From the IMG/VR virus record IMGVR_UViG_3300048854_000273, positions 43,413 through 107,412 of that record: DNA of 64,000 nt; one strand, given 5' to 3'. The position numbers and the translations under genes are program-made. This document shows positions 17,600 to 64,000 of the stretch, one piece after another. How positions within the stretch are numbered: the first letter of the stretch is position 1; the number at the start of each line of letters is the position of its first letter. Source of the stretch: a virus. Taxonomy: Duplodnaviria > Heunggongvirae > Uroviricota > Caudoviricetes. The notes under the pieces were generated by a model, which was given only the letters and a program-made list of their open reading frames with translations, had not been told where the DNA came from and made no database searches.

Positions 17600-17904
17600 C
17601 AGTCCTCTCCCCGGTTTTTGCGATCCTCGTCGTCCAGGTCCACGTCCAGCACATTCCACAGTTCGACCGAGCACTCCTCGATCTCTAAACCCGCCGGCGA
17701 TACTCCAGGGTCCAGCAGTTGCTGGATGCAGTTTTCGAAATTGGGGCTACCATCTTCTTCCGTCAGATCCTCGCGCGCCGCTGGCTCATTCACGTAGAAC
17801 GGCCGACCATCGGGCCCAGGCAGCATCGCGCTTGCGACGGCCGCCTCCAGCATTGCCTTCTCGTCGACCACCTTGACGGTCATCGTTATGTCGAACGTCC
17901 GCAT
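17599..17904 (-). CDS. hypothetical acidic protein (101 aa)
   Basis: ORF. Confidence 0.45.
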   Translation of the reverse strand: MRTFDITMTVKVVDEKAMLEAAVASAMLPGPDGRPFYVNEPAAREDLTEEDGSPNFENCIQQLLDPGVSPAGLEIEECSVELWNVLDVDLDDEDRKNRGED

Positions 17905-53979: not shown

Positions 53980-55014
53980 TTACCCGTTTGATACTCGTGC
54001 AGCGTTCACAGCCCGATTTGCCAGATTTTCGCGTTCGGCCTGGGCCGCCATGATGCGTGCCTGTCCCTTGCTCTCGTCGCGGCGATCGGCACCCAACTGG
54101 ATGATCATGTCGCGGCGATCCGACAGCGCGAACACGCAGGACTTCGCCACCGCGGCGATCGATTCAGCCTCGATCACAAGCTGCTTGCCTGCAATCCAGC
54201 GCGGGTCGATCTTGACCATGTTCTCGACAGCCTTCTCGGTCACCTTCTCGCCCGACGTCACGAGCGCCTTGCGATGCTCGTCGTAGATTTTTGCCTCGCG
54301 CACTTCAAAGCGGGTCTTGATGCTTGAGGCCTGCGCTTCCGCACGTGCGGCACGTGCACCGTAAAAAGCACGCAAACTGGCTTGCTGCATCATGCAATCG
54401 TCCAGATTGTTTTCCGTGACCTGCATGTCTGCTTTAAAGCTGTCCACGTCGATGTAGTAGTCGAGCGCAGCCGCTGCTTTCTTCGCCTTCGCGATGGCTG
54501 CGACTTCCTCTTCCTCTATCGATGACTTCGTCGGGGCCGGTGCGGGTGCGGGTGCTACAGGCTCAAGTTCTTCTGCGGGCGGGTGCGGCATCGTCAAGGT
54601 CTCGGCCGGTTCGGTCGATTCTTCGTCCCACGGTGGCGTGGCGGGCGGTGCGACTGTGCCCGATTCGATCTCCGCTTCGAGCGCCGCGAGTTCGTCGTCC
54701 ACGTTCGATTCGTCAGCGACCGGTGCTGCCAGCGGAGTCGGTGCGGGAGCCGCCAGCACGACCGTCGTGCCCTCTTCTTCCAGAACGATCAGATCCTCAT
54801 CCGACAGCGTCAGATCGGCTTCAACCGGGGTAGATGCCGGTGCCTCATCAAGTTCGTCCAGACCTTCCAGCTCGTCACTGGTCGGCTCGGGTGTGGCAAC
54901 GACGGGGGTCTTCTTTGGCGCGGGGGCTGCGGCCGGCACCCCGGTCGCTTCTTCCAGCTCCAGCATCAACGAATCGAGTTCATCATCCGGCACCGGGATT
55001 TCGGGGGTTGTCAT
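53980..55014 (-). CDS. hypothetical protein, acidic Pro/Ala-rich N-terminal half plus conserved C-terminal domain (possible recombination mediator)
   Basis: ORF; GAGGAG RBS; sits between the SSB and dnaE genes. Confidence 0.45.
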   Translation of the reverse strand: MTTPEIPVPDDELDSLMLELEEATGVPAAAPAPKKTPVVATPEPTSDELEGLDELDEAPASTPVEADLTLSDEDLIVLEEEGTTVVLAAPAPTPLAAPVADESNVDDELAALEAEIESGTVAPPATPPWDEESTEPAETLTMPHPPAEELEPVAPAPAPAPTKSSIEEEEVAAIAKAKKAAAALDYYIDVDSFKADMQVTENNLDDCMMQQASLRAFYGARAARAEAQASSIKTRFEVREAKIYDEHRKALVTSGEKVTEKAVENMVKIDPRWIAGKQLVIEAESIAAVAKSCVFALSDRRDMIIQLGADRRDESKGQARIMAAQAERENLANRAVNAARVSNG

Positions 55015-55078
55015 GTCTGCTCCTCAGTAAGAACTGTTCTTCACGCGTCGAGTATAGCGACGCGCGACAGGGTTTTGC

Positions 55079-55098: not shown

Positions 55099-58000
55099 TC
55101 AGTTAAGACAATCAGCCACCTTTTCAAATACGGCTGCCAGGATCTCGGCCTTCGATGTGTCGAACAGGATCTGCTGCGCGTTAATGCCGCACACGATGCT
55201 CGCGTCCAACGTCTTGTCGAAGATCACCTTGCCGGCGAGTTCGGCCGTGCCGCCCTTGATGCCCGGCACGAAGTGCTTGATCGACGCCGAGCCAAGCGCC
55301 ACGATCACCGCGGGCTTGATCAGCTCCAGCTCGCGCTGAAGGAAGCCCTTGCAGCCGTTGATCTGGGCGTTCGAGAGGAACTTGTCGCTCTTTTTCGCCT
55401 TGACCAGCGACGTGTAATAGCCCTCTGCCGGATTGAGTCCCGCCTGCTTGATCGCTTCCTTGATGAAGTCGGCCGCATCCCCTTCAAGCATCTTGTCGGC
55501 CTTCTCCTCCTGCCAGCTCGGACAGTCGGACACGACCATGAACTTAACCGTGTGCTTGGCTCGCACAGTCGGGTGTGGCTGACCCGCCAGATCGCAGCCC
55601 TCGCAGTTCTTGTATTCCTGCACGAGGCTGATCACCTTTGCACGCAGGAACGTTTCTTTCAGGTCTGTCGTGCGATCGGCCTTCACGCTGTCGATGATGA
55701 GGCCGCCCATCAGTTCGGTCTGTTCACGGCGTCGGTCCGGGTGTCGCGCAGGTTTTGCCCCTGGTTGCAGCGGCACGAGGGCGCCGACTTTATCCAGCCC
55801 ATCGCGGACCTTGCTGTTGACCTTCGAGCCCTTTGCTTCCGTGATGTTCAGGAACTCATCCATGTCCTTGAACGTGCCGCCGTTCTGGCGCCGCAGCTCC
55901 ACAATGCGCAGTGCCGTGTTCTCGGAGATACCCTTCACGGCCGAGAACGGCGCGAGCAGGTGGTTGTCGTCGGGAATCGTGAAGCGCTCGCGCGACAGGT
56001 TGATATCGGGCGGCAGCACTTCGATGCCGAACTCACGCGCTTCCTCAACGAGACTCGGCAGCTTTTCTTCCTTCACGATCGACATGCAGGCGGCGAAGTA
56101 TTCCGCCGGGTAGCGCACGCGCACCCACATCGTCCAGTAGGAGATGAGCGAATACTCCACCGCGTGCGAGCGGTTGAAACCGTAGCCTGCAAAGGCTTCG
56201 ATCTTGTCGAACAGCTTGCCGGCGGGGATTTCGTCCATGCCCGACTTGGCGAGACAGCCGTCGACCCACTTCTGTCGCATTTCGGCCATCTTGTCCTTGT
56301 CCTTCTTGCCCATCGCTTTGCGCAGGTGATCCGCTTCAGCGCGCGTAAAGCCCGCCAGATCGACCGCCACCTGCATGACCTGTTCCTGATAGACGATGAC
56401 GCCGTAGGTGTCCTTTAGCGCCGCCTCCATGTTCGGATGATCGTAGTAGACAGACTTGGCACCTTGCTTGATCTGGATGAAGTCGTCCATCAGCCCCGAG
56501 TCCATTGGACCTGGCCGGTAAAGCGCGGTCGCGGCGGTTACGTCCTCGAACGTGAGCAGCCCACCCATCGCGAGATTGCGCAGCAGTGCCTTCATGCCGC
56601 CCGAGTCGAACTGGAACACGCCGGTTGTGTCACCCTTGCCGAACGCAGCCATAATGTCTGGCTCCTCCAGCGGCAAGTCCAGGTAGTCGATTTTCTTGCC
56701 GTGCCGCTCCCCGATGTAGGTCTTGGCAATCTCCAGCACGTCGAGCGTGGAGAGCCCCAGAATATCCATCTTGACCAGGCCCCAGTCCTCGACGACGCGC
56801 TTGTCCCAGTTCACGACCGGCGACTCGCCGCGCGTTTCAACGACTGCCCGGTTGATCAGCGGCTCGCCTGCGACAACCACACCGGCTGCGTGCTGCCCGA
56901 ACGAACGCATGGCCCCTTCGAGCTTGAGCGCATGGCCCCAGACCTCCGGGTGGGTGTCACGGAACTTCTCCAGGTCAGCAACCGCCTTCGCCGCTTCGGT
57001 GAGCGTGAAGGAGTTGCCGTGCTCTTTCGGCACGAGCTTGGTCGCGGCCAGGTCCAGGTTCGACAGACCCCACACGCGCCCCGTGTCGCGCAGCGCCGAT
57101 GCAGAGGCGAGCGTCGAGAAATTGGAGATGCCGGCGACGCGGTCGGCGCCGTATTTGCCGGTCAGATATTCAATCACCAGATGGCGCTTGCTCGACATGA
57201 AGTCCAGGTCAGCATCGGGCAAATCCAGACGCTCGGGATTGATGAAGCGCTCGAACAGGAGGTTGAAGCGGATCGGATCCACGTCCGTGATGCCGAGCAG
57301 ATACGCAACGAGCGAGCCGCCGACCGAACCGCGGCCTGGCCCGACGATAATGTCGTTCGCCTTCGCCCACATGACAAGGTCTTCGACCAGCAGGAAGTAG
57401 CCGGCGAAGCCCATTTTCTTGAGCACGCCCAACTCATACTGGAGCCGCGTCTTGTATTCAGGCATGAGCGACACGGGCGGCAGATAGCCGAGCACCGGAT
57501 ACGTGAAGCGCCGCTTCCAGCCCTCAATGCACTTCCTGCCAAGCGTGACGAACTCGTTCTCGGCCATTGCGGGCAGCGAGACCGGGTGTTTCTTGAACTC
57601 GTAGCCGCACTTCGCCGCGAGCTTCTCGACGTTGGTCAAGCCAGCCAGCCACAGATGTGGCTCATGCACGCCGTAGAACCGCTTCACGCGTGTGGCGGCC
57701 GCCTTCAGCCGCTCGATGACGTGCTTGGGCTCGGCGAAACCAAAGTCGCGCACGTGCTGGATGGGTCGATACGAGACGTCCATCTTCGTGTTCGACGTCA
57801 CTGCGCCCAGCACGTCCAGGCTGTCCGCGTCGGTGTTCTCGCGATAGAGCGTCGGATAGTTGACGATCGTCTGGACTTCGTGGACGCGCGCGGCCTTCAG
57901 CGCTTCGGCGTTCAGAGTGTCGAATAGCGGCGTGTTGATCGGGACGAGCTCCACCAAAAAGTCGTCCCTGAACGTCATGTTCAGCCGTAGCGCGATATCG

Positions 58001-58464
58001 AACGCTTCCGGGTGGTGGAACAGGTTGAAGAAGTCGCCCGTTGTCACCACGACGCCTTCGAGCTTCAACACGTCCTCGAGCCCGACGCGCGACACGTAGT
58101 AGAAGTAGTCCGGCGAGTTCGCTTTCGACAGCAGCTTGATCAGTCCGGCGACACCGCGCTCGTCCTTCGCATACACCTTCAGGGTGTAGCCGCGGTTCGG
58201 CTTTTCCTTCTCGCCCGACGCCTTCGGCGGCTTGCGGTAGGTGGGATCGTCGACCACGCGCACCGCACATCCGATGATCGGCTTGATGCCGGCTTTCTTC
58301 GCGCGCTGCGAGAAATCGACCATCGCGTGCAGGCTCATTTCATCGACGAGGGCGACGGACTCGTAGCCCAGCTCCTTCGCCTTGCTGACGATATGGTCGA
58401 CCTGCAAGAGTGACTTGCCGATCGAAAAGTCGGAGCGCACCGCGAGGGCATGTCCGAGATTCAT
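55099..58464 (-). CDS. dnaE: DNA polymerase III alpha subunit (DnaE-type, PHP + Pol-beta-like palm)
   Basis: 1121 aa; N-terminal PHP domain; conserved DnaE blocks (GPGRGS, LLFERF, YRPGPM). Confidence 0.9.
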   Translation of the reverse strand: MNLGHALAVRSDFSIGKSLLQVDHIVSKAKELGYESVALVDEMSLHAMVDFSQRAKKAGIKPIIGCAVRVVDDPTYRKPPKASGEKEKPNRGYTLKVYAKDERGVAGLIKLLSKANSPDYFYYVSRVGLEDVLKLEGVVVTTGDFFNLFHHPEAFDIALRLNMTFRDDFLVELVPINTPLFDTLNAEALKAARVHEVQTIVNYPTLYRENTDADSLDVLGAVTSNTKMDVSYRPIQHVRDFGFAEPKHVIERLKAAATRVKRFYGVHEPHLWLAGLTNVEKLAAKCGYEFKKHPVSLPAMAENEFVTLGRKCIEGWKRRFTYPVLGYLPPVSLMPEYKTRLQYELGVLKKMGFAGYFLLVEDLVMWAKANDIIVGPGRGSVGGSLVAYLLGITDVDPIRFNLLFERFINPERLDLPDADLDFMSSKRHLVIEYLTGKYGADRVAGISNFSTLASASALRDTGRVWGLSNLDLAATKLVPKEHGNSFTLTEAAKAVADLEKFRDTHPEVWGHALKLEGAMRSFGQHAAGVVVAGEPLINRAVVETRGESPVVNWDKRVVEDWGLVKMDILGLSTLDVLEIAKTYIGERHGKKIDYLDLPLEEPDIMAAFGKGDTTGVFQFDSGGMKALLRNLAMGGLLTFEDVTAATALYRPGPMDSGLMDDFIQIKQGAKSVYYDHPNMEAALKDTYGVIVYQEQVMQVAVDLAGFTRAEADHLRKAMGKKDKDKMAEMRQKWVDGCLAKSGMDEIPAGKLFDKIEAFAGYGFNRSHAVEYSLISYWTMWVRVRYPAEYFAACMSIVKEEKLPSLVEEAREFGIEVLPPDINLSRERFTIPDDNHLLAPFSAVKGISENTALRIVELRRQNGGTFKDMDEFLNITEAKGSKVNSKVRDGLDKVGALVPLQPGAKPARHPDRRREQTELMGGLIIDSVKADRTTDLKETFLRAKVISLVQEYKNCEGCDLAGQPHPTVRAKHTVKFMVVSDCPSWQEEKADKMLEGDAADFIKEAIKQAGLNPAEGYYTSLVKAKKSDKFLSNAQINGCKGFLQRELELIKPAVIVALGSASIKHFVPGIKGGTAELAGKVIFDKTLDASIVCGINAQQILFDTSKAEILAAVFEKVADCLN

Positions 58465-59227: not shown

Positions 59228-59875
59228 TCAAAGAGTGTCGATAATGCGGCGCACTTCCTGGGCCGCTGCTGCCATGTCGCGCGTGCCGACGTCCTTCTTC
59301 ACCAGGCGAATGAACTTGCAGATGAAGCCGATGTTGACGCCGGCGGCGCACCGCGTGCGAATGCCGATGCTGCGGCTGTAATCGCAGTGCGCCTGGTTCT
59401 TCCTGATCTCCTCCAGCAGCGCGGCCGGTGGGCTCACGATCCACTCTACGATCAGCGCCGCGAGCGGGCTCATGCCCTGCACCGCCTTCTCGATCTGGAG
59501 CGCGCACTGTTGCCGGTCCAGAATTTCCTCCGGCGTCATCGCATCGCTCGGGACGGTTTCTAGAAGGTTGGAGCTTTCGTCGTCGCCCATGCCCTCGATG
59601 CTGAACACGCCGTTCTCGCGCTCCTCCTCACTGCTCTCAGCCTTGCGGTTGATGCGGTTGTAGGCTGCGGTGCCGAAATATGTGGTGAAGGCGAAGCCCT
59701 TGCTCGGGTCAAACTTCGCGTGCGCCAGCAGGAAGGCTTCACGAACGTCGGCGAACACGTCGTCGTATTGGGTGGAAGCCTCCAGGTCCAGGAGACGCCC
59801 ATAGCACTTGCGTGCTATCTGGTGGACGAATCCCAGATTCCCCTGGTAGCACTCGACAATGTCGGCGCTATACAT
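59228..59875 (-). CDS. RNA polymerase sigma-70-family factor (regions 2 and 4; ECF-like size)
   Basis: region 2: YQGNLGFVHQIARKCYG...FDPSKGFAFTTYFGTAAYNRINR; C-terminal HTH-like region; 215 aa. Confidence 0.65.
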   Translation of the reverse strand: MYSADIVECYQGNLGFVHQIARKCYGRLLDLEASTQYDDVFADVREAFLLAHAKFDPSKGFAFTTYFGTAAYNRINRKAESSEEERENGVFSIEGMGDDESSNLLETVPSDAMTPEEILDRQQCALQIEKAVQGMSPLAALIVEWIVSPPAALLEEIRKNQAHCDYSRSIGIRTRCAAGVNIGFICKFIRLVKKDVGTRDMAAAAQEVRRIIDTL

Positions 59876-61189: not shown

Positions 61190-63202
61190 TCAGCCAATCA
61201 GCAGCGAGCGCAACTCCTTCATCACGCGTGAGGGCAGCTCCGACACGTTGTTAATGATCATGTGGCGCTTGTAGAACTGTTTAACGGCCTCAGACTGGAT
61301 GCCAATGCCGACGACGCGCACCCCTGCCTTCTCGATGTTCACCACCGTGTCCTTCAGGTGCTGGAATACCGCCGCACCGCCGCCATCACAGGCGGGTGCG
61401 CCATCGGACAGGACGATCATGATCTTGCCCGCCTCGCGACGCTGCATGAGGCGTCGGGCGGCAATCTCGATGCACTCGCCATCGACGTTATTGCGCAACG
61501 TGTTGCAGTTCGGCAGCCAGCCAAAGCGATTGCGCACTTCGGTGGACTGCATGCGCTCGTTGAAGGATTTCAGGATCGGCATGTAGAGGCTTTCCGTTCG
61601 GCTGAACCGCTTGCCAAGACGCTTCTCCTCCTTCTCCATCTTTTCTTCATCCACGATGTTGCCAGTGGTGAAGCAGATGGTCTCGGACTTGATGTTCAGG
61701 CGATCGAGGACCGAGGCGAGCGCATATCCCGCCTGCGCCGCCGTGTGGATCTTGCTACCCCACATCGAGCCCGACATGTCGATCACCAGCTCCACCGCAA
61801 CATCCTTGCTGGTTGACTCATGCTTTTTTCGGAACACACGCGCGTCGCCTACTGCCAGCCGTGACAGGTTGCCACTGTGCAGACGTCCGGAGCGGCGGCC
61901 GTTCTCCCAGACAGAGAGCGAACGCGCACTGATGGCACGCTCCAGATCCTTCTGGAGTGGCGCGACCATGTGGTCGACCTCGTCACTGAGCTTCTTGGTC
62001 ATTTCTGGCTTGAAGCCGGAACCCAAGTGCAGCGGCTCGATGACGTCGTTGTCCTTCGTGTAGACCAGGTATTGCGCCCCTTTCGCCGCCTCGATCGCGT
62101 CGTTGGTGATCAGACGTGACATGGTTTCGTCAAAGCCGTTGGCGGTTTCCTTGTCGAGAGCGGCGAGAAAACCCGACGAATCACCGGTGTTGACGTCCTC
62201 GTCATCCTCCCCCGACGGCTCATCGTCGTCGGATTCCGACTCAGCATCGTCCTCACCGTCCTCACCTTCTTCATCTTCCTCGCCGGATTTGGCTTCTTCA
62301 CCTTCCCCGCCGGCCCCGCCGCTTTCCTCGCCCTCGCCCTCGCCCTCGCCCTCGCCCTCGCCTTCTTCGGAGCCTGAGCCGGACTTGCCACCCGGCAGAC
62401 CTGCGCCGGATTCCTCCTCGCTCTCCTCGTCGCTTTCTTCCTCCGACTCCGGCTTTGGCCCGCTCTTTCCCATCGACGGCTTGCCGGAGCTTGCCTTCGA
62501 CCGGGATTTGGCTTTCTTAGGCTTCGGAGGCGCGGCACCGCCGCCAGCCCCACCGCTCGTCGCACGACCGAGCGCGGTCATCACTTCCTGTGCGAGCGTC
62601 ACGGCGTCGCCTGTGGTCGGGCAGTTTGCAATCTTGGACGCGAGGTGCTCGATCTTGTCGACCTCGTCGGCGATCGCTTCCTGCATGTCCGGGTGATCAG
62701 TGAGCCACTGCTTGAAAATGTGCTGTCCGGCCATCGCTCGCAGCGCCGGCACCATCACCAATGCCTTGACGCCGTTCACGTCGCCCTTCTTGGCAGCTTC
62801 GCGAATCTGCGGCTTGACGTATTTGTCTAGGAAGAACTGGCCCGTCACGGCAATGTTGTGACCCGAACCCTGGAAGCGCTTGGCCATCTCCCGCTCGATA
62901 CGGGTGTCCTCGATGATGTTGACCATGTTGTGCAGGCTCGGGTCGCGAATCGCGTTCATCGCCTTGAAGTCGGTGAACAGGATATGTGCGACCTCATGGT
63001 CGAGAAAGCCCTGAATTGCCGCGCATAGCTCATCGCTGGCGTTATCCGGCAGATACGGCAGATTGACGTGCGCGGGTTCACCGTTGGCCCCAGGCTGGAC
63101 GTATGCGCTGATGCCGCGCTGCGTGACCGTGATGCCCTTGCCCGCCAGCATCTGCGTAATCGTGACTACCGCCTCACGCAGAACAAATACTCGTTCGTTC
63201 AT
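61190..63202 (-). CDS. CobT-like von Willebrand factor A domain protein with internal acidic (EGEGEG) region
   Basis: C-terminal VWA MIDAS VIDMSGSMWGS; central poly-acidic block; paired with the upstream AAA+ gene. Confidence 0.65.
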   Translation of the reverse strand: MNERVFVLREAVVTITQMLAGKGITVTQRGISAYVQPGANGEPAHVNLPYLPDNASDELCAAIQGFLDHEVAHILFTDFKAMNAIRDPSLHNMVNIIEDTRIEREMAKRFQGSGHNIAVTGQFFLDKYVKPQIREAAKKGDVNGVKALVMVPALRAMAGQHIFKQWLTDHPDMQEAIADEVDKIEHLASKIANCPTTGDAVTLAQEVMTALGRATSGGAGGGAAPPKPKKAKSRSKASSGKPSMGKSGPKPESEEESDEESEEESGAGLPGGKSGSGSEEGEGEGEGEGEGEESGGAGGEGEEAKSGEEDEEGEDGEDDAESESDDDEPSGEDDEDVNTGDSSGFLAALDKETANGFDETMSRLITNDAIEAAKGAQYLVYTKDNDVIEPLHLGSGFKPEMTKKLSDEVDHMVAPLQKDLERAISARSLSVWENGRRSGRLHSGNLSRLAVGDARVFRKKHESTSKDVAVELVIDMSGSMWGSKIHTAAQAGYALASVLDRLNIKSETICFTTGNIVDEEKMEKEEKRLGKRFSRTESLYMPILKSFNERMQSTEVRNRFGWLPNCNTLRNNVDGECIEIAARRLMQRREAGKIMIVLSDGAPACDGGGAAVFQHLKDTVVNIEKAGVRVVGIGIQSEAVKQFYKRHMIINNVSELPSRVMKELRSLLIG

Positions 63203-63220
63203 CCTTGCACCTCACTATGT

Positions 63221-63234
63221 AGTCAAAATTGACT
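63221..63234 (-). promoter_or_regulatory. motif in reverse orientation AGTCAAAATTGACT
   Basis: 18 nt upstream of the cobT-like ATG (63202). Confidence 0.55.
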
Positions 63235-63274
63235 GAATAAGTGAATCATAAACGCGCGCTCACGGGAGCGCAAT

Positions 63275-63288
63275 AGTCAGTTTTGACT
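63275..63288 (+). promoter_or_regulatory. motif AGTCAGTTTTGACT
   Basis: preceded by hairpin GCGCTC-acgg-GAGCGC (63255-63272). Confidence 0.55.
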
Positions 63289-63347
63289 TATCTAAGTGGC
63301 GATAAAAAAGGGCGACTTTCGTCACCCTTTCTCAGGGGCAGCAGGAG

Positions 63348-63575
63348 CTAAGAGAGCATTGCCGCAGTGATGATTACCGCTCCTCCACCGTCAGTGTTGA
63401 CCATCATCAACACCCCGAGAACAGGGTGAATCACTTTACTGATTGATGCTGAGCCCAGATCGATCGCGCCGACCGTCTCGCCTTCGCCGAGGACTTCTGA
63501 AAAGCGATCCAAGTCGACCATCTCACCGAATGCATGTTGTTTTGCACTATTGGCCATAGAACCCACCGTCACCAT
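63348..63575 (-). CDS. small hypothetical protein
   Basis: ORF, weak. Confidence 0.3.
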   Translation of the reverse strand: MVTVGSMANSAKQHAFGEMVDLDRFSEVLGEGETVGAIDLGSASISKVIHPVLGVLMMVNTDGGGAVIITAAMLS

Positions 63576-63626
63576 CTGATTCTCCAGAAACGTCGAACAC
63601 GTTATGTTGTCTTACGCACACATTAT

Positions 63627-63640
63627 AGTCAGTGTTGACT
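63627..63640 (+). promoter_or_regulatory. motif AGTCAGTGTTGACT
   Basis: read directly. Confidence 0.5.
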
Positions 63641-63728
63641 ATCGAAAGCAAATAGCCGAAACCGCTAGACGTCCCGCACCCGGTCGGGCGAGAGTCCTTT
63701 GCCTGCGGCGTAGCTCTTCAAACCATAT

Positions 63729-63742
63729 TGTCAAAATTGACT
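63729..63742 (-). promoter_or_regulatory. motif reverse-orientation variant TGTCAAAATTGACT
   Basis: read directly. Confidence 0.45.
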
Positions 63743-63774
63743 GTTACCCAAGTAATTGGTAGTCTGCGCGTGAC

Positions 63775-63788
63775 AGTCAAGTTTTACT
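63775..63788 (+). promoter_or_regulatory. motif variant AGTCAAGTTTTACT
   Basis: read directly; 75 nt upstream of the (+) gene ATG. Confidence 0.4.
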
Positions 63789-63793
63789 GATTG

Positions 63794-63838
63794 GCGTCTA
63801 TAATCGACGCAAGAAATCAATTGCGGGACGTCCCGCAA
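63794..63838 (+). promoter_or_regulatory. inverted repeat GCGTC-TATAAT-c-GACGC (63794-63810) and 18-bp perfect palindrome TTGCGGGACGTCCCGCAA (63821-63838) upstream of the (+) gene
   Basis: TATAAT at 63799-63804; half-repeat GACGTCCCGCA also at 63668-63678. Confidence 0.5.
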
Positions 63839-63862
63839 GACCCAAACAAGGAGGTTTATAAA

Positions 63863-64000
63863 ATGGTAAAGAAAGATACCGCCATGTCGGTGGCAGACTA
63901 CTTCTCGAATCAGGTCGCAGCCAATCAGAAAACTCTTGCCGGCCTAAGCAATGACATCGGTGGCGCACTCCGACCCAATGTTCTGTCGATGATCTCCAAC
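63863..64000 (+). CDS. partial CDS running off window end (MVKKDTAMSVADYFSNQVAANQ...)
   Basis: strong RBS AAGGAGG 8 nt upstream. Confidence 0.5.
   Translation, partial: MVKKDTAMSVADYFSNQVAANQKTLAGLSNDIGGALRPNVLSMISN

Follow-up and report, generated by a model that had tools for sequence, protein, structure and literature searches.

A probable immunity-type control region with two classes of candidate operator in an uncharacterized phage lineage related to SSU5-like and Acinetobacter phage-plasmids

Phage-plasmids of the SSU5-like and Acinetobacter groups are common in clinical Klebsiella, Salmonella, Escherichia coli and Acinetobacter baumannii. A published survey has already linked the SSU5 and Acinetobacter AB groups to one another; regulation is not covered there (PMC7969092), and we found no study of the regulation of these elements in the literature searched. 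Here we describe the control region close to the end of a 64,000-nucleotide stretch of a Caudoviricetes genome (positions 43,413 to 107,412 of IMG/VR record IMGVR_UViG_3300048854_000273; hereafter ‘the window’), where a long minus-strand gene block meets a plus-strand gene that starts at 63863. The window phage probably represents an uncharacterized, GC-rich lineage of large temperate phages with Burkholderiaceae hosts; the lineage has the SSU5 and Acinetobacter phage-plasmids as relatives, and most of its members are integrative. We find that the region is very likely the immunity-type control region of a temperate phage – predicted divergent promoters beside a helix-turn-helix (HTH) regulator gene, copies of a genome-wide palindromic motif over both promoters, and a further GC-rich palindrome in the regulator leader. 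To the composite reading, in which this is an immunity-type switch with two classes of operator, we would assign a probability of about 50%. The window offers a clean, conserved control-region map in a distant relative of the clinical elements and names two candidates: an operator repeated genome-wide, together with the protein that probably binds it, and a second operator specific to the lineage. Should the map be confirmed, it would aid the prediction of immunity groups, of induction and of the control of copy number across the family.

When the region was compared by megablast with 50,697 phage records, no match was returned, and no phage record is close in DNA. Relatives were taken from IMG/VR (L002, at 80% nucleotide identity, L003 and L025), from a Caballeronia calidae genome (NZ_FCOX02000125.1; L007, positions 3000–4414 of L007), from a single metagenome contig (L015; a metagenome scan and a genome scan gave one locus each) and from contigs encoding six protein homologues (L008 to L014). 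Conservation was assessed over 12 relatives, ten aligned plus L015 and L025, with regulator identity down to 47%. Relatives of the window phage are 111–113 kb long. L008 is 100% identical to window positions 62333–64000 and extends the window by 3 kb. A more distant relative, L004, with 33% identity in CobT, lacks both the motif and the regulators and is uninformative for that reason, and two plasmid searches for betaproteobacterial intermediates returned mostly Acinetobacter records and none from Cupriavidus or Thauera.

The intergenic region spans 287 bp and is largely randomized among relatives apart from a few footprints: the arms of three copies of an AGTCA-N4-TGACT motif (M3, M4 and M5), CTATAATCGA, and a 14-bp core, GCGGG-N4-CCCGC. 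At least 9 of 10 relatives retain the blocks GTCA (in M4), ACAGTCA (in M5), CGTCTATAATCGAC, GCGGGA and GTCCCGC. On the leftward side we read a candidate minus-strand promoter, P_L (63622–63651), consisting of TTGCTT (63651–63646), an 18-nucleotide spacer and TATAAT (63627–63622). M3 (63627–63640, minus strand) fills this spacer at about −25 to −12 and abuts the −10, with which it shares its last T. The corresponding footprint, CATTATAGTCA...TGACTAT, comprises the P_L −10 and M3; CATTATAGTCA is invariant in the nine relatives spanning P_L, and the arms of M3 are retained wherever the region is present.

On the rightward side lies the core of a predicted plus-strand promoter, P_R (GCGTC-TATAAT-c-GACGC, 63794–63810), with TATAAT at 63799–63804 and CGTCTATAATCGAC as its conserved block; variants of this −10 among relatives are TACAAT, TATACT and TATTAT. 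M5 (AGTCA-AGTT-TTACT, 63775–63788), with a weakened right arm, occupies the place expected of the P_R −35 (about −36 to −23), and M4 (TGTCAAAATTGACT, 63729–63742, plus strand, in the rare orientation) always stands 46 bp upstream of M5. We found no −35 for P_R – GTCAAG at 17 nucleotides matches at only 2 of 6 positions – beside the perfect, conserved −10 TATAAT. A generic promoter scan called no canonical promoter on either strand of the region; P_L was not called because its −35 matches at only 3 of 6 positions. The GC palindrome is a perfect 18-mer (TTGCGGGACGTCCCGCAA, 63821–63838); given a transcription start near 63811, its core, GCGGG-ACGT-CCCGC at 63823–63836, would occupy about +13 to +26. 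The palindrome is followed by a plus-strand Shine-Dalgarno sequence (AAGGAGG, 63848–63854) 8 nucleotides before the ATG. A divergent arrangement of promoters predicted from sequence, with repeated motif copies over both, is thus present and conserved. A first-pass annotation of this DNA had listed the repeat around TATAAT, the 18-bp palindrome, a second copy of its half-site, the strong ribosome-binding site and five motif copies, two of them in the rare orientation (63221 and 63729); all of these are there, at the same positions.

The motif is not confined to the control region. Its full form is AYAGTCA-AAAC-TGACTRT, and 31 copies lie in the window (for example at 752, 6005, 6690, 12389, 31409, 48583 and 53948), with 27 of the 31 copies oriented with transcription and no conserved −35. 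Five copies fall within 568 bp of the control region where 0.28 would be expected (Poisson P about 1e-5). M3, M4 and M5 have conserved arms around a variable centre (the M3 centre is GTGT in the window and TCGC in L003); the right arm of M5 is mostly TTACT or TTATT among relatives and is weaker still in L007. No compensation accompanies the common arm variants AGTAA and TGAGT, and this speaks against a hairpin. The motif strings gave no text match in the literature searched. We consider that the copies are probably operators bound by a protein.

Homologous palindromes are dispersed through both distant elements. AGTCAGTACTGACT occurs 33 times in an Acinetobacter plasmid (L018/L019, CP115646; 2.9 expected); the counterpart in a Klebsiella SSU5-like phage (L020/L021, MZ779062) is GGTAAGTACTTACC, with about 20 copies (2.2 expected). 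Copies in these elements often abut a −10-like hexamer, and in all three lineages a TAnnnT hexamer is enriched at one position only, directly against the motif. A dispersed-operator pattern, one short site at many promoters or gaps, is therefore present in the window and in its Acinetobacter and Klebsiella relatives. We compared the distribution of three candidate binders – the product of the plus-strand gene, an HTH-PAS protein encoded next to it, and a sigma-like protein. Only the family of the plus-strand gene was detected in all three lineages; neither distant element has the HTH-PAS protein, and no sigma-like protein was detected in the Klebsiella phage. Because it is the sole regulator family tested that occurs in all three, we assign the motif to the product of the plus-strand gene with moderate confidence.

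The first 46 codons of this gene lie in the window (63863–64000, plus strand), which cuts it off. The first-pass annotation had proposed reading beyond the window to identify the product, and L008 supplies it: an apparent XRE-like HTH regulator of 132 amino acids (P0002), encoded by a monocistronic gene with a strong terminator 40 nucleotides after the stop codon. Consistent with this assignment, sub-threshold HTH_3 matches were found in 5 of 7 orthologues (19.1–22.2 bits, E 1.5e-4 to 1.4e-3), the protein matches PHROG 8, ‘transcriptional regulator’ (E 1.9e-4), and the Acinetobacter and Cereibacter orthologues are named HTH or XRE regulators in RefSeq/GenBank. No PDB relative was found by sequence, and there was no NCBIfam match.

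When the window is simulated with a first-order Markov model, at least one perfect 18-bp palindrome arises in 32% of runs, so the weight of the GC palindrome rests on conservation. Outside this lineage, IMG/VR contains one exact match to the 18-mer, which falls in an unrelated contig rich in AT. Ten of the 12 relatives have the core GCGGG-N4-CCCGC unchanged between flanks saturated with changes; its centre is ACGT in most relatives, GCGT in L010 and AAGT in L009, and in L015 the left core arm is mutated and CGTCCCGCA is intact. What the first-pass annotation had singled out as an 18-bp element therefore survives as its inner 14 bp, a phylogenetic footprint, the outer TT/AA being clade-specific. 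The distance from the −10 to the core ranges from 15 to 27 nucleotides among relatives, which indicates that the core is conserved independently of the −10 block.

A related half-site recurs upstream. GACGTCCCGCA at 63668–63678 (plus strand) is repeated at 63827–63837 and inverted at 63822–63832, an exact 11-mer recurrence expected about 6e-4 times within ±300 bp; with one mismatch allowed, the 11-mer occurs four times in the whole window against 2.5 expected, which is unremarkable. The upstream half-site (CGTCCC, −193 to −195 from the ATG) is present in all members of the window clade and absent in L009, L003, L007, L013 and L015, while L025 carries a half-site, GGGACGTC, at −104 instead. Auxiliary half-sites thus occur in two clades, at different places and in different orientations (chance expectations 6e-4 and 0.017). 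As general features of the region, neither the recurring half-site nor the inverted repeat around TATAAT holds up: the former is confined to the window clade, and the GCGTC/GACGC arms are lost in L003, L007, L013 and L025, with a different repeat at that position in L015 (TCGACTCG/CGATTCGA).

Four of the five base pairs of the core stem show no compensatory change across the 12 relatives, and the lone case of both sides changing, at the fifth pair, is an alignment shift. An intrinsic terminator 500 bp from the core, read from the sequence on the minus strand as an inverted repeat (63304–63330; GGGUGAC-GAAA-GUCGCCC followed by UUUUUU), has kept its shape and changed its stem sequence among relatives (compared with L002 and L003 in alignment A1), and so serves as an internal control for structure-only selection. 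The GC core shares its 5-N4-5 geometry with the genome-wide motif; the arms differ. The missing covariation set against terminator turnover, the auxiliary half-sites and the 5-N4-5 geometry together suggest that a dimeric HTH protein binds the core as DNA, although we regard a lineage-specific DNA operator at the GC core as an evenly balanced proposition. Core and HTH-PAS gene could both be examined in 9 lineages and occur together in all 9; L013, with no HTH-PAS gene at that position, has a disrupted core, and both core and gene are absent from the Acinetobacter and Klebsiella elements.

Several further observations concern palindromes in the window. Perfect palindromes centred on ACGT are over-represented, making up 5 of the 8 that are at least 14 bp long against a 6% background (P about 4e-5); the positions noted are 10988, 23173, 35894, 61100 and 63821, together with 31354, 35896 and 61103. 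GCAACGTTGC occurs three times against about 0.08 expected (a hand estimate from base composition), and 4 of the 6 ACGT-centred palindromes of at least 12 bp are intergenic. A second −10 hexamer within a GC-rich inverted repeat, CGCGTCG-CTATACT-CGACGCG, is found on the minus strand at 55045–55063, upstream of the gene at 53980–55014; its L003 orthologue (17640–17665) has a repeat around TACAAT in a different register.

On these grounds we propose that M3, M4 and M5 would be operators at which a dimeric regulator encoded by the phage acts. This regulator is most likely what the plus-strand gene itself encodes, and it would also bind about 30 further copies at other promoters across the genome. 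Occupancy would shut the leftward early promoter, and the weaker M5 site would let the regulator limit its own synthesis. The GC palindrome would be a second operator, between the −10 and the ribosome-binding site (RBS) of the regulator gene, where a bound dimer would block transcription of that gene; it could provide extra autoregulation or, given the shared phyletic distribution, an input from the neighboring HTH-PAS protein. The transcription starts, the pairing of binders with sites and the sign of regulation in this scheme are predictions placed on an observed anatomy, conservation and gene context. A broader extension, which we offer as a long shot, is a two-tier lysis-lysogeny switch common to the ~100-kb SSU5-like, Acinetobacter AB group and Burkholderiaceae elements: one small XRE-type regulator would act on about 20–30 promoter-abutting palindromes across the genome and, in the Burkholderiaceae elements, a PAS-sensor HTH protein would set its level via the GC palindrome. 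If that were true, staying lysogenic would respond to a small-molecule or redox signal.

Some results weigh against this scheme, and they are best considered with the alternatives that they favor. The HTH_3 scores of the regulator fall below the Pfam threshold of 23, and its AlphaFold2 model is all-helical at low confidence (predicted local distance difference test score, pLDDT, 56). Its recognition helix, PNxLSxI, is the same in lineages with different motif arms (AGTCA versus GGTAA); because helix and arms do not co-vary, the link between motif and regulator is one that we infer. Most motif-associated promoters lack a −35, so the motif could be an activator or promoter element and not a repressor site. 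The motif, M3 to M5 included, would then belong to phage-specific promoters, as an activator site or a sequence read with the sigma-like protein, and the region would be a cluster of such promoters; P1 late promoters and T4 middle promoters are models for this. The abutting −10-like hexamers with no conserved −35, the agreement of 27 of 31 copies with the direction of transcription, the placement of Acinetobacter plasmid copies before replication, structural and lysis genes alike, and the sigma-70 region 2 protein encoded in the window (59228–59875) would all fit. However, TAnnnT stands against the motif in only 25–35% of copies in the window and the Acinetobacter plasmid, the distance from motif to −10 varies (0, 8, 10 and 22 nucleotides), in one case the motif includes the HTH-PAS start codon, past the RBS of that gene, and the Klebsiella phage has the motif with no sigma-like gene detected. 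The two-fold symmetry suits a dimer and not a sigma factor, and a site centred near −19 stands at a typical repressor position. We therefore regard a promoter-element role as possible but rather unlikely, and keep the operator reading of the motif.

For the GC palindrome, the main competing reading is that it acts as RNA – a 5′-leader stem-loop, GCGGG-ACGU-CCCGC, that sets messenger RNA stability or binds an RNA-binding protein, with no DNA operator involved. The regulator leader is predicted to fold into a hairpin (−15.3 kcal/mol for 70 nucleotides, z-score −2.7), with a consensus structure of a 5-bp stem at −8 kcal/mol. Such a hairpin would tolerate the varying loop (ACGT, GCGT, AAGT) and the 15- to 27-nucleotide range in distance from the −10, and ACGT-centred palindromes with different arms are enriched in the intergenic DNA of the phage. 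L013 counts against a DNA operator, as after a 24-nucleotide insertion it keeps GCGGG, 9 nucleotides and CCCGC: the hairpin is preserved with a 9-nucleotide loop and the half-site spacing is not, which favors an RNA or structural reading. L007 also counts against the pairing of core and HTH-PAS, as it keeps the core and has no HTH-PAS gene in the 400 bp available downstream; L007 may be a true exception or a truncated sequence. On the other side, no compensatory change was seen in 12 relatives while the adjacent terminator stem changes, a sixth base pair is not maintained, and the hairpin is clear of the Shine-Dalgarno sequence. Its stem would start about 12 nucleotides from the 5′ end, too far for a classical 5′-end protector (RNase E, RppH), and half-sites upstream of the inferred start would have no role. 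No Rfam 15 family matched (best SorX, 18.5 bits against a threshold of 46.6, E 0.13). We judge the RNA reading unlikely. Two other readings are far less probable still. In one, the palindrome would be a minus-strand intrinsic terminator or insulator against antisense read-through from downstream minus-strand genes into the early operon; a generic scan does call a minus-strand 7-bp stem followed by TTGATTTCTT, but relatives have not kept the weak U-rich tail (L009 has AUGAUGUUG, L015 GAAAGUUUCG), the plus strand has no U tract, and the gap between the HTH-PAS gene and the plus-strand gene contains a separate terminator for each. The nonconserved tail and the separate terminators make such a role improbable. 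In the other, the palindrome, half-site and TATAAT repeat would have arisen by chance, a possibility that the first-pass annotation had raised for the palindrome, or would have been carried along with a conserved promoter, and in either case would themselves be without function. The 18-mer alone, expected in a third of such windows, would allow this, as would the nonconservation of its outer bases, the TATAAT repeat and the half-site in distant relatives. The conservation of the core speaks for function, however: its 14 bp form one of only five footprints in the 287-bp region, and the varying distance to the −10 block shows that it is conserved separately. Nor was the suggestion of a restriction-modification feature borne out, as GACGTC (the AatII site) is not depleted or avoided in the window (45 sites against 32 ± 6 expected). 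We thus return to a DNA operator as our working interpretation of the core.

Beyond the window, the plus-strand regulator gene is followed by a convergent gene with HTH_3 and PAS_3 domains (215–230 amino acids) that has its own terminator, and then by an HTH_17 excisionase-like gene and a tyrosine integrase (Phage_integrase in L008). In neither HTH protein did we detect an S24 domain. L009 continues into the host genes pgsA and uvrC, which identifies it as an integrated prophage, whereas L003 and L025 encode ParA and a Rep initiator where others have the excisionase-like gene and integrase, which marks them as phage-plasmids. The lysogeny module is thus exchangeable at one position (L008 2189–4447, L009 6682–8934, L003 4470–7708, L025 3082–6282), and the pair of HTH and HTH-PAS genes is kept with both module types. 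L003 and L025 retain the palindrome without Int and Xis, and on that basis we rejected a palindrome function tied to att or to Int/Xis. Downstream of its RBS, the HTH-PAS gene has its start codon within a motif copy, AGTCAAAAATGACT (L009 7324–7337, L002 7023–7036, L011 4317–4330), and a second, canonical copy lies about 35 nucleotides further upstream. L007 retains the regulator gene, the −10 and M5, and the GC core is intact there; its DNA beyond about −130 upstream is unrelated to the phage; since no HTH-PAS gene follows either, this locus may be a prophage remnant.

This context bears on the suggestion that the region is a master regulatory switch at which transcription changes strand. A regulatory switch is supported by the HTH regulator, the adjoining HTH-PAS/Xis/Int or ParA/Rep genes and the motif copies over both promoters, while ‘master’ status goes further than these and is something we infer. 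The plus-strand gene does reverse the direction of transcription, but it is a single monocistronic gene and the next gene is again on the minus strand. The intergenic gap separates two small monocistronic units, each ending at its own terminator.

The first gene of the leftward unit is a 75-amino-acid open reading frame (ORF; 63348–63575, minus strand) with no family match and no detectable HTH, whose transcript would end at the 63304–63330 terminator. A small ORF of 66–94 amino acids occupies this position in every relative spanning it, including the Klebsiella and Acinetobacter elements. Within the 75-amino-acid ORF lies a weak sixth motif copy, CGTCAGTGTTGACC (63389–63402), whose GTCAGT..TGA part is conserved in L002 and L003. 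Past the terminator, the CobT-like gene has a motif pair of its own: M2 (63275–63288, minus strand, AGTCAAAACTGACT in the canonical orientation) and M1 (63221–63234, AGTCAAAATTGACT in the rare orientation), the latter 19 nucleotides upstream of the gene start at 63202. The M1/M2 pair, with a spacing of 54–55 bp, is retained in L002, L003, L009, L010, L011 and L014.

Leftward from the small ORF runs a CobT/CobS/sigma-like/DnaE replication block. Minus-strand products in the window include a CobT-like VWA protein, a CobS-like AAA_5 ATPase, the sigma-70 region 2 protein, a DnaE with a uracil-DNA glycosylase (UDG)-like domain, a gp32-like protein, a 5′-3′ exonuclease and RecA. The DnaE-type polymerase (55099–58464, minus strand) carries its C-terminal UDG superfamily domain at residues 972–1070. 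The sigma-like protein (59228–59875, minus strand; 215 amino acids) has below-threshold matches to sigma-70 region 2 and to extracytoplasmic function (ECF)-type sigma profiles; a homologue is present in the Acinetobacter plasmid and none was detected in the Klebsiella phage. Other control elements were sought in the region and set aside: a second plus-strand promoter, TTGACT(63737)-17-TAGTCT(63760), has a −10 that is not conserved in L009, L003 or L025; a sigma-54 promoter across TTGGCG... has the wrong spacing (by eye); an ECF-type −35/−10 around CGAC has no consistent −35 (by eye); and a LexA box is absent.

Compared with described systems, the region is a typical phage control region, an ordinary kind of switch, in an uncharacterized lineage. 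Its arrangement resembles the lambda immunity region: predicted back-to-back promoters lie between an HTH regulator gene and an early operon, several candidate operator copies cover both promoters, including a weaker one at the regulator’s own promoter, and an integration module (integrase and excisionase in L008) lies alongside. Unlike in lambda, the candidate operators number about 31 and are spread over the genome, the regulator shows no S24 peptidase domain, and the first leftward gene encodes 75 amino acids with no detectable HTH, not a Cro-like HTH protein. The extra GC palindrome in the regulator leader and the convergent second HTH regulator with a PAS-like domain also set it apart, as does the replacement of the integration module by ParA and Rep in some relatives.

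In the recurrence of one candidate operator sequence at many promoters, all of which a single regulator could silence, the window phage recalls P1 and its C1 repressor, and both are phages or phage-plasmids of ~100 kb. P1 operators are asymmetric 17-mers and C1 is not known to be of the XRE type, whereas the sites here are two-fold symmetric 5-N4-5 elements, and no homology to P1 immunity genes was seen. The stoperators of mycobacteriophage L5 gp71 are likewise tens of short sites in short intergenic gaps with an orientation tied to transcription; they are asymmetric 13-mers, bound by a monomer, that block elongation, while many of the sites in the window phage abut −10 hexamers, which suggests control of initiation. 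The predicted position of the GC palindrome is that of a lac O1-type operator – a palindrome lying between the −10 and the RBS, a short way past the start – although the sequence and protein family differ and binding at the GC palindrome is putative.

Gene order links the region to the SSU5-supergroup and Acinetobacter AB phage-plasmids themselves. The regulators of these elements are only 30–38% identical to that of the window phage, the elements lack the GC palindrome and the HTH-PAS gene, and the window lineage differs in being GC-rich, probably of Burkholderiaceae and mostly integrative. The order of CobS-like gene, CobT-like gene and small ORF, divergent from an HTH gene, nevertheless recurs in the Klebsiella SSU5-like phage pJN2-26 and in ~105 kb Acinetobacter baumannii plasmids, and the lineages have in common DnaE, RecA, ligase and other genes together with the homologous genome-wide palindrome.

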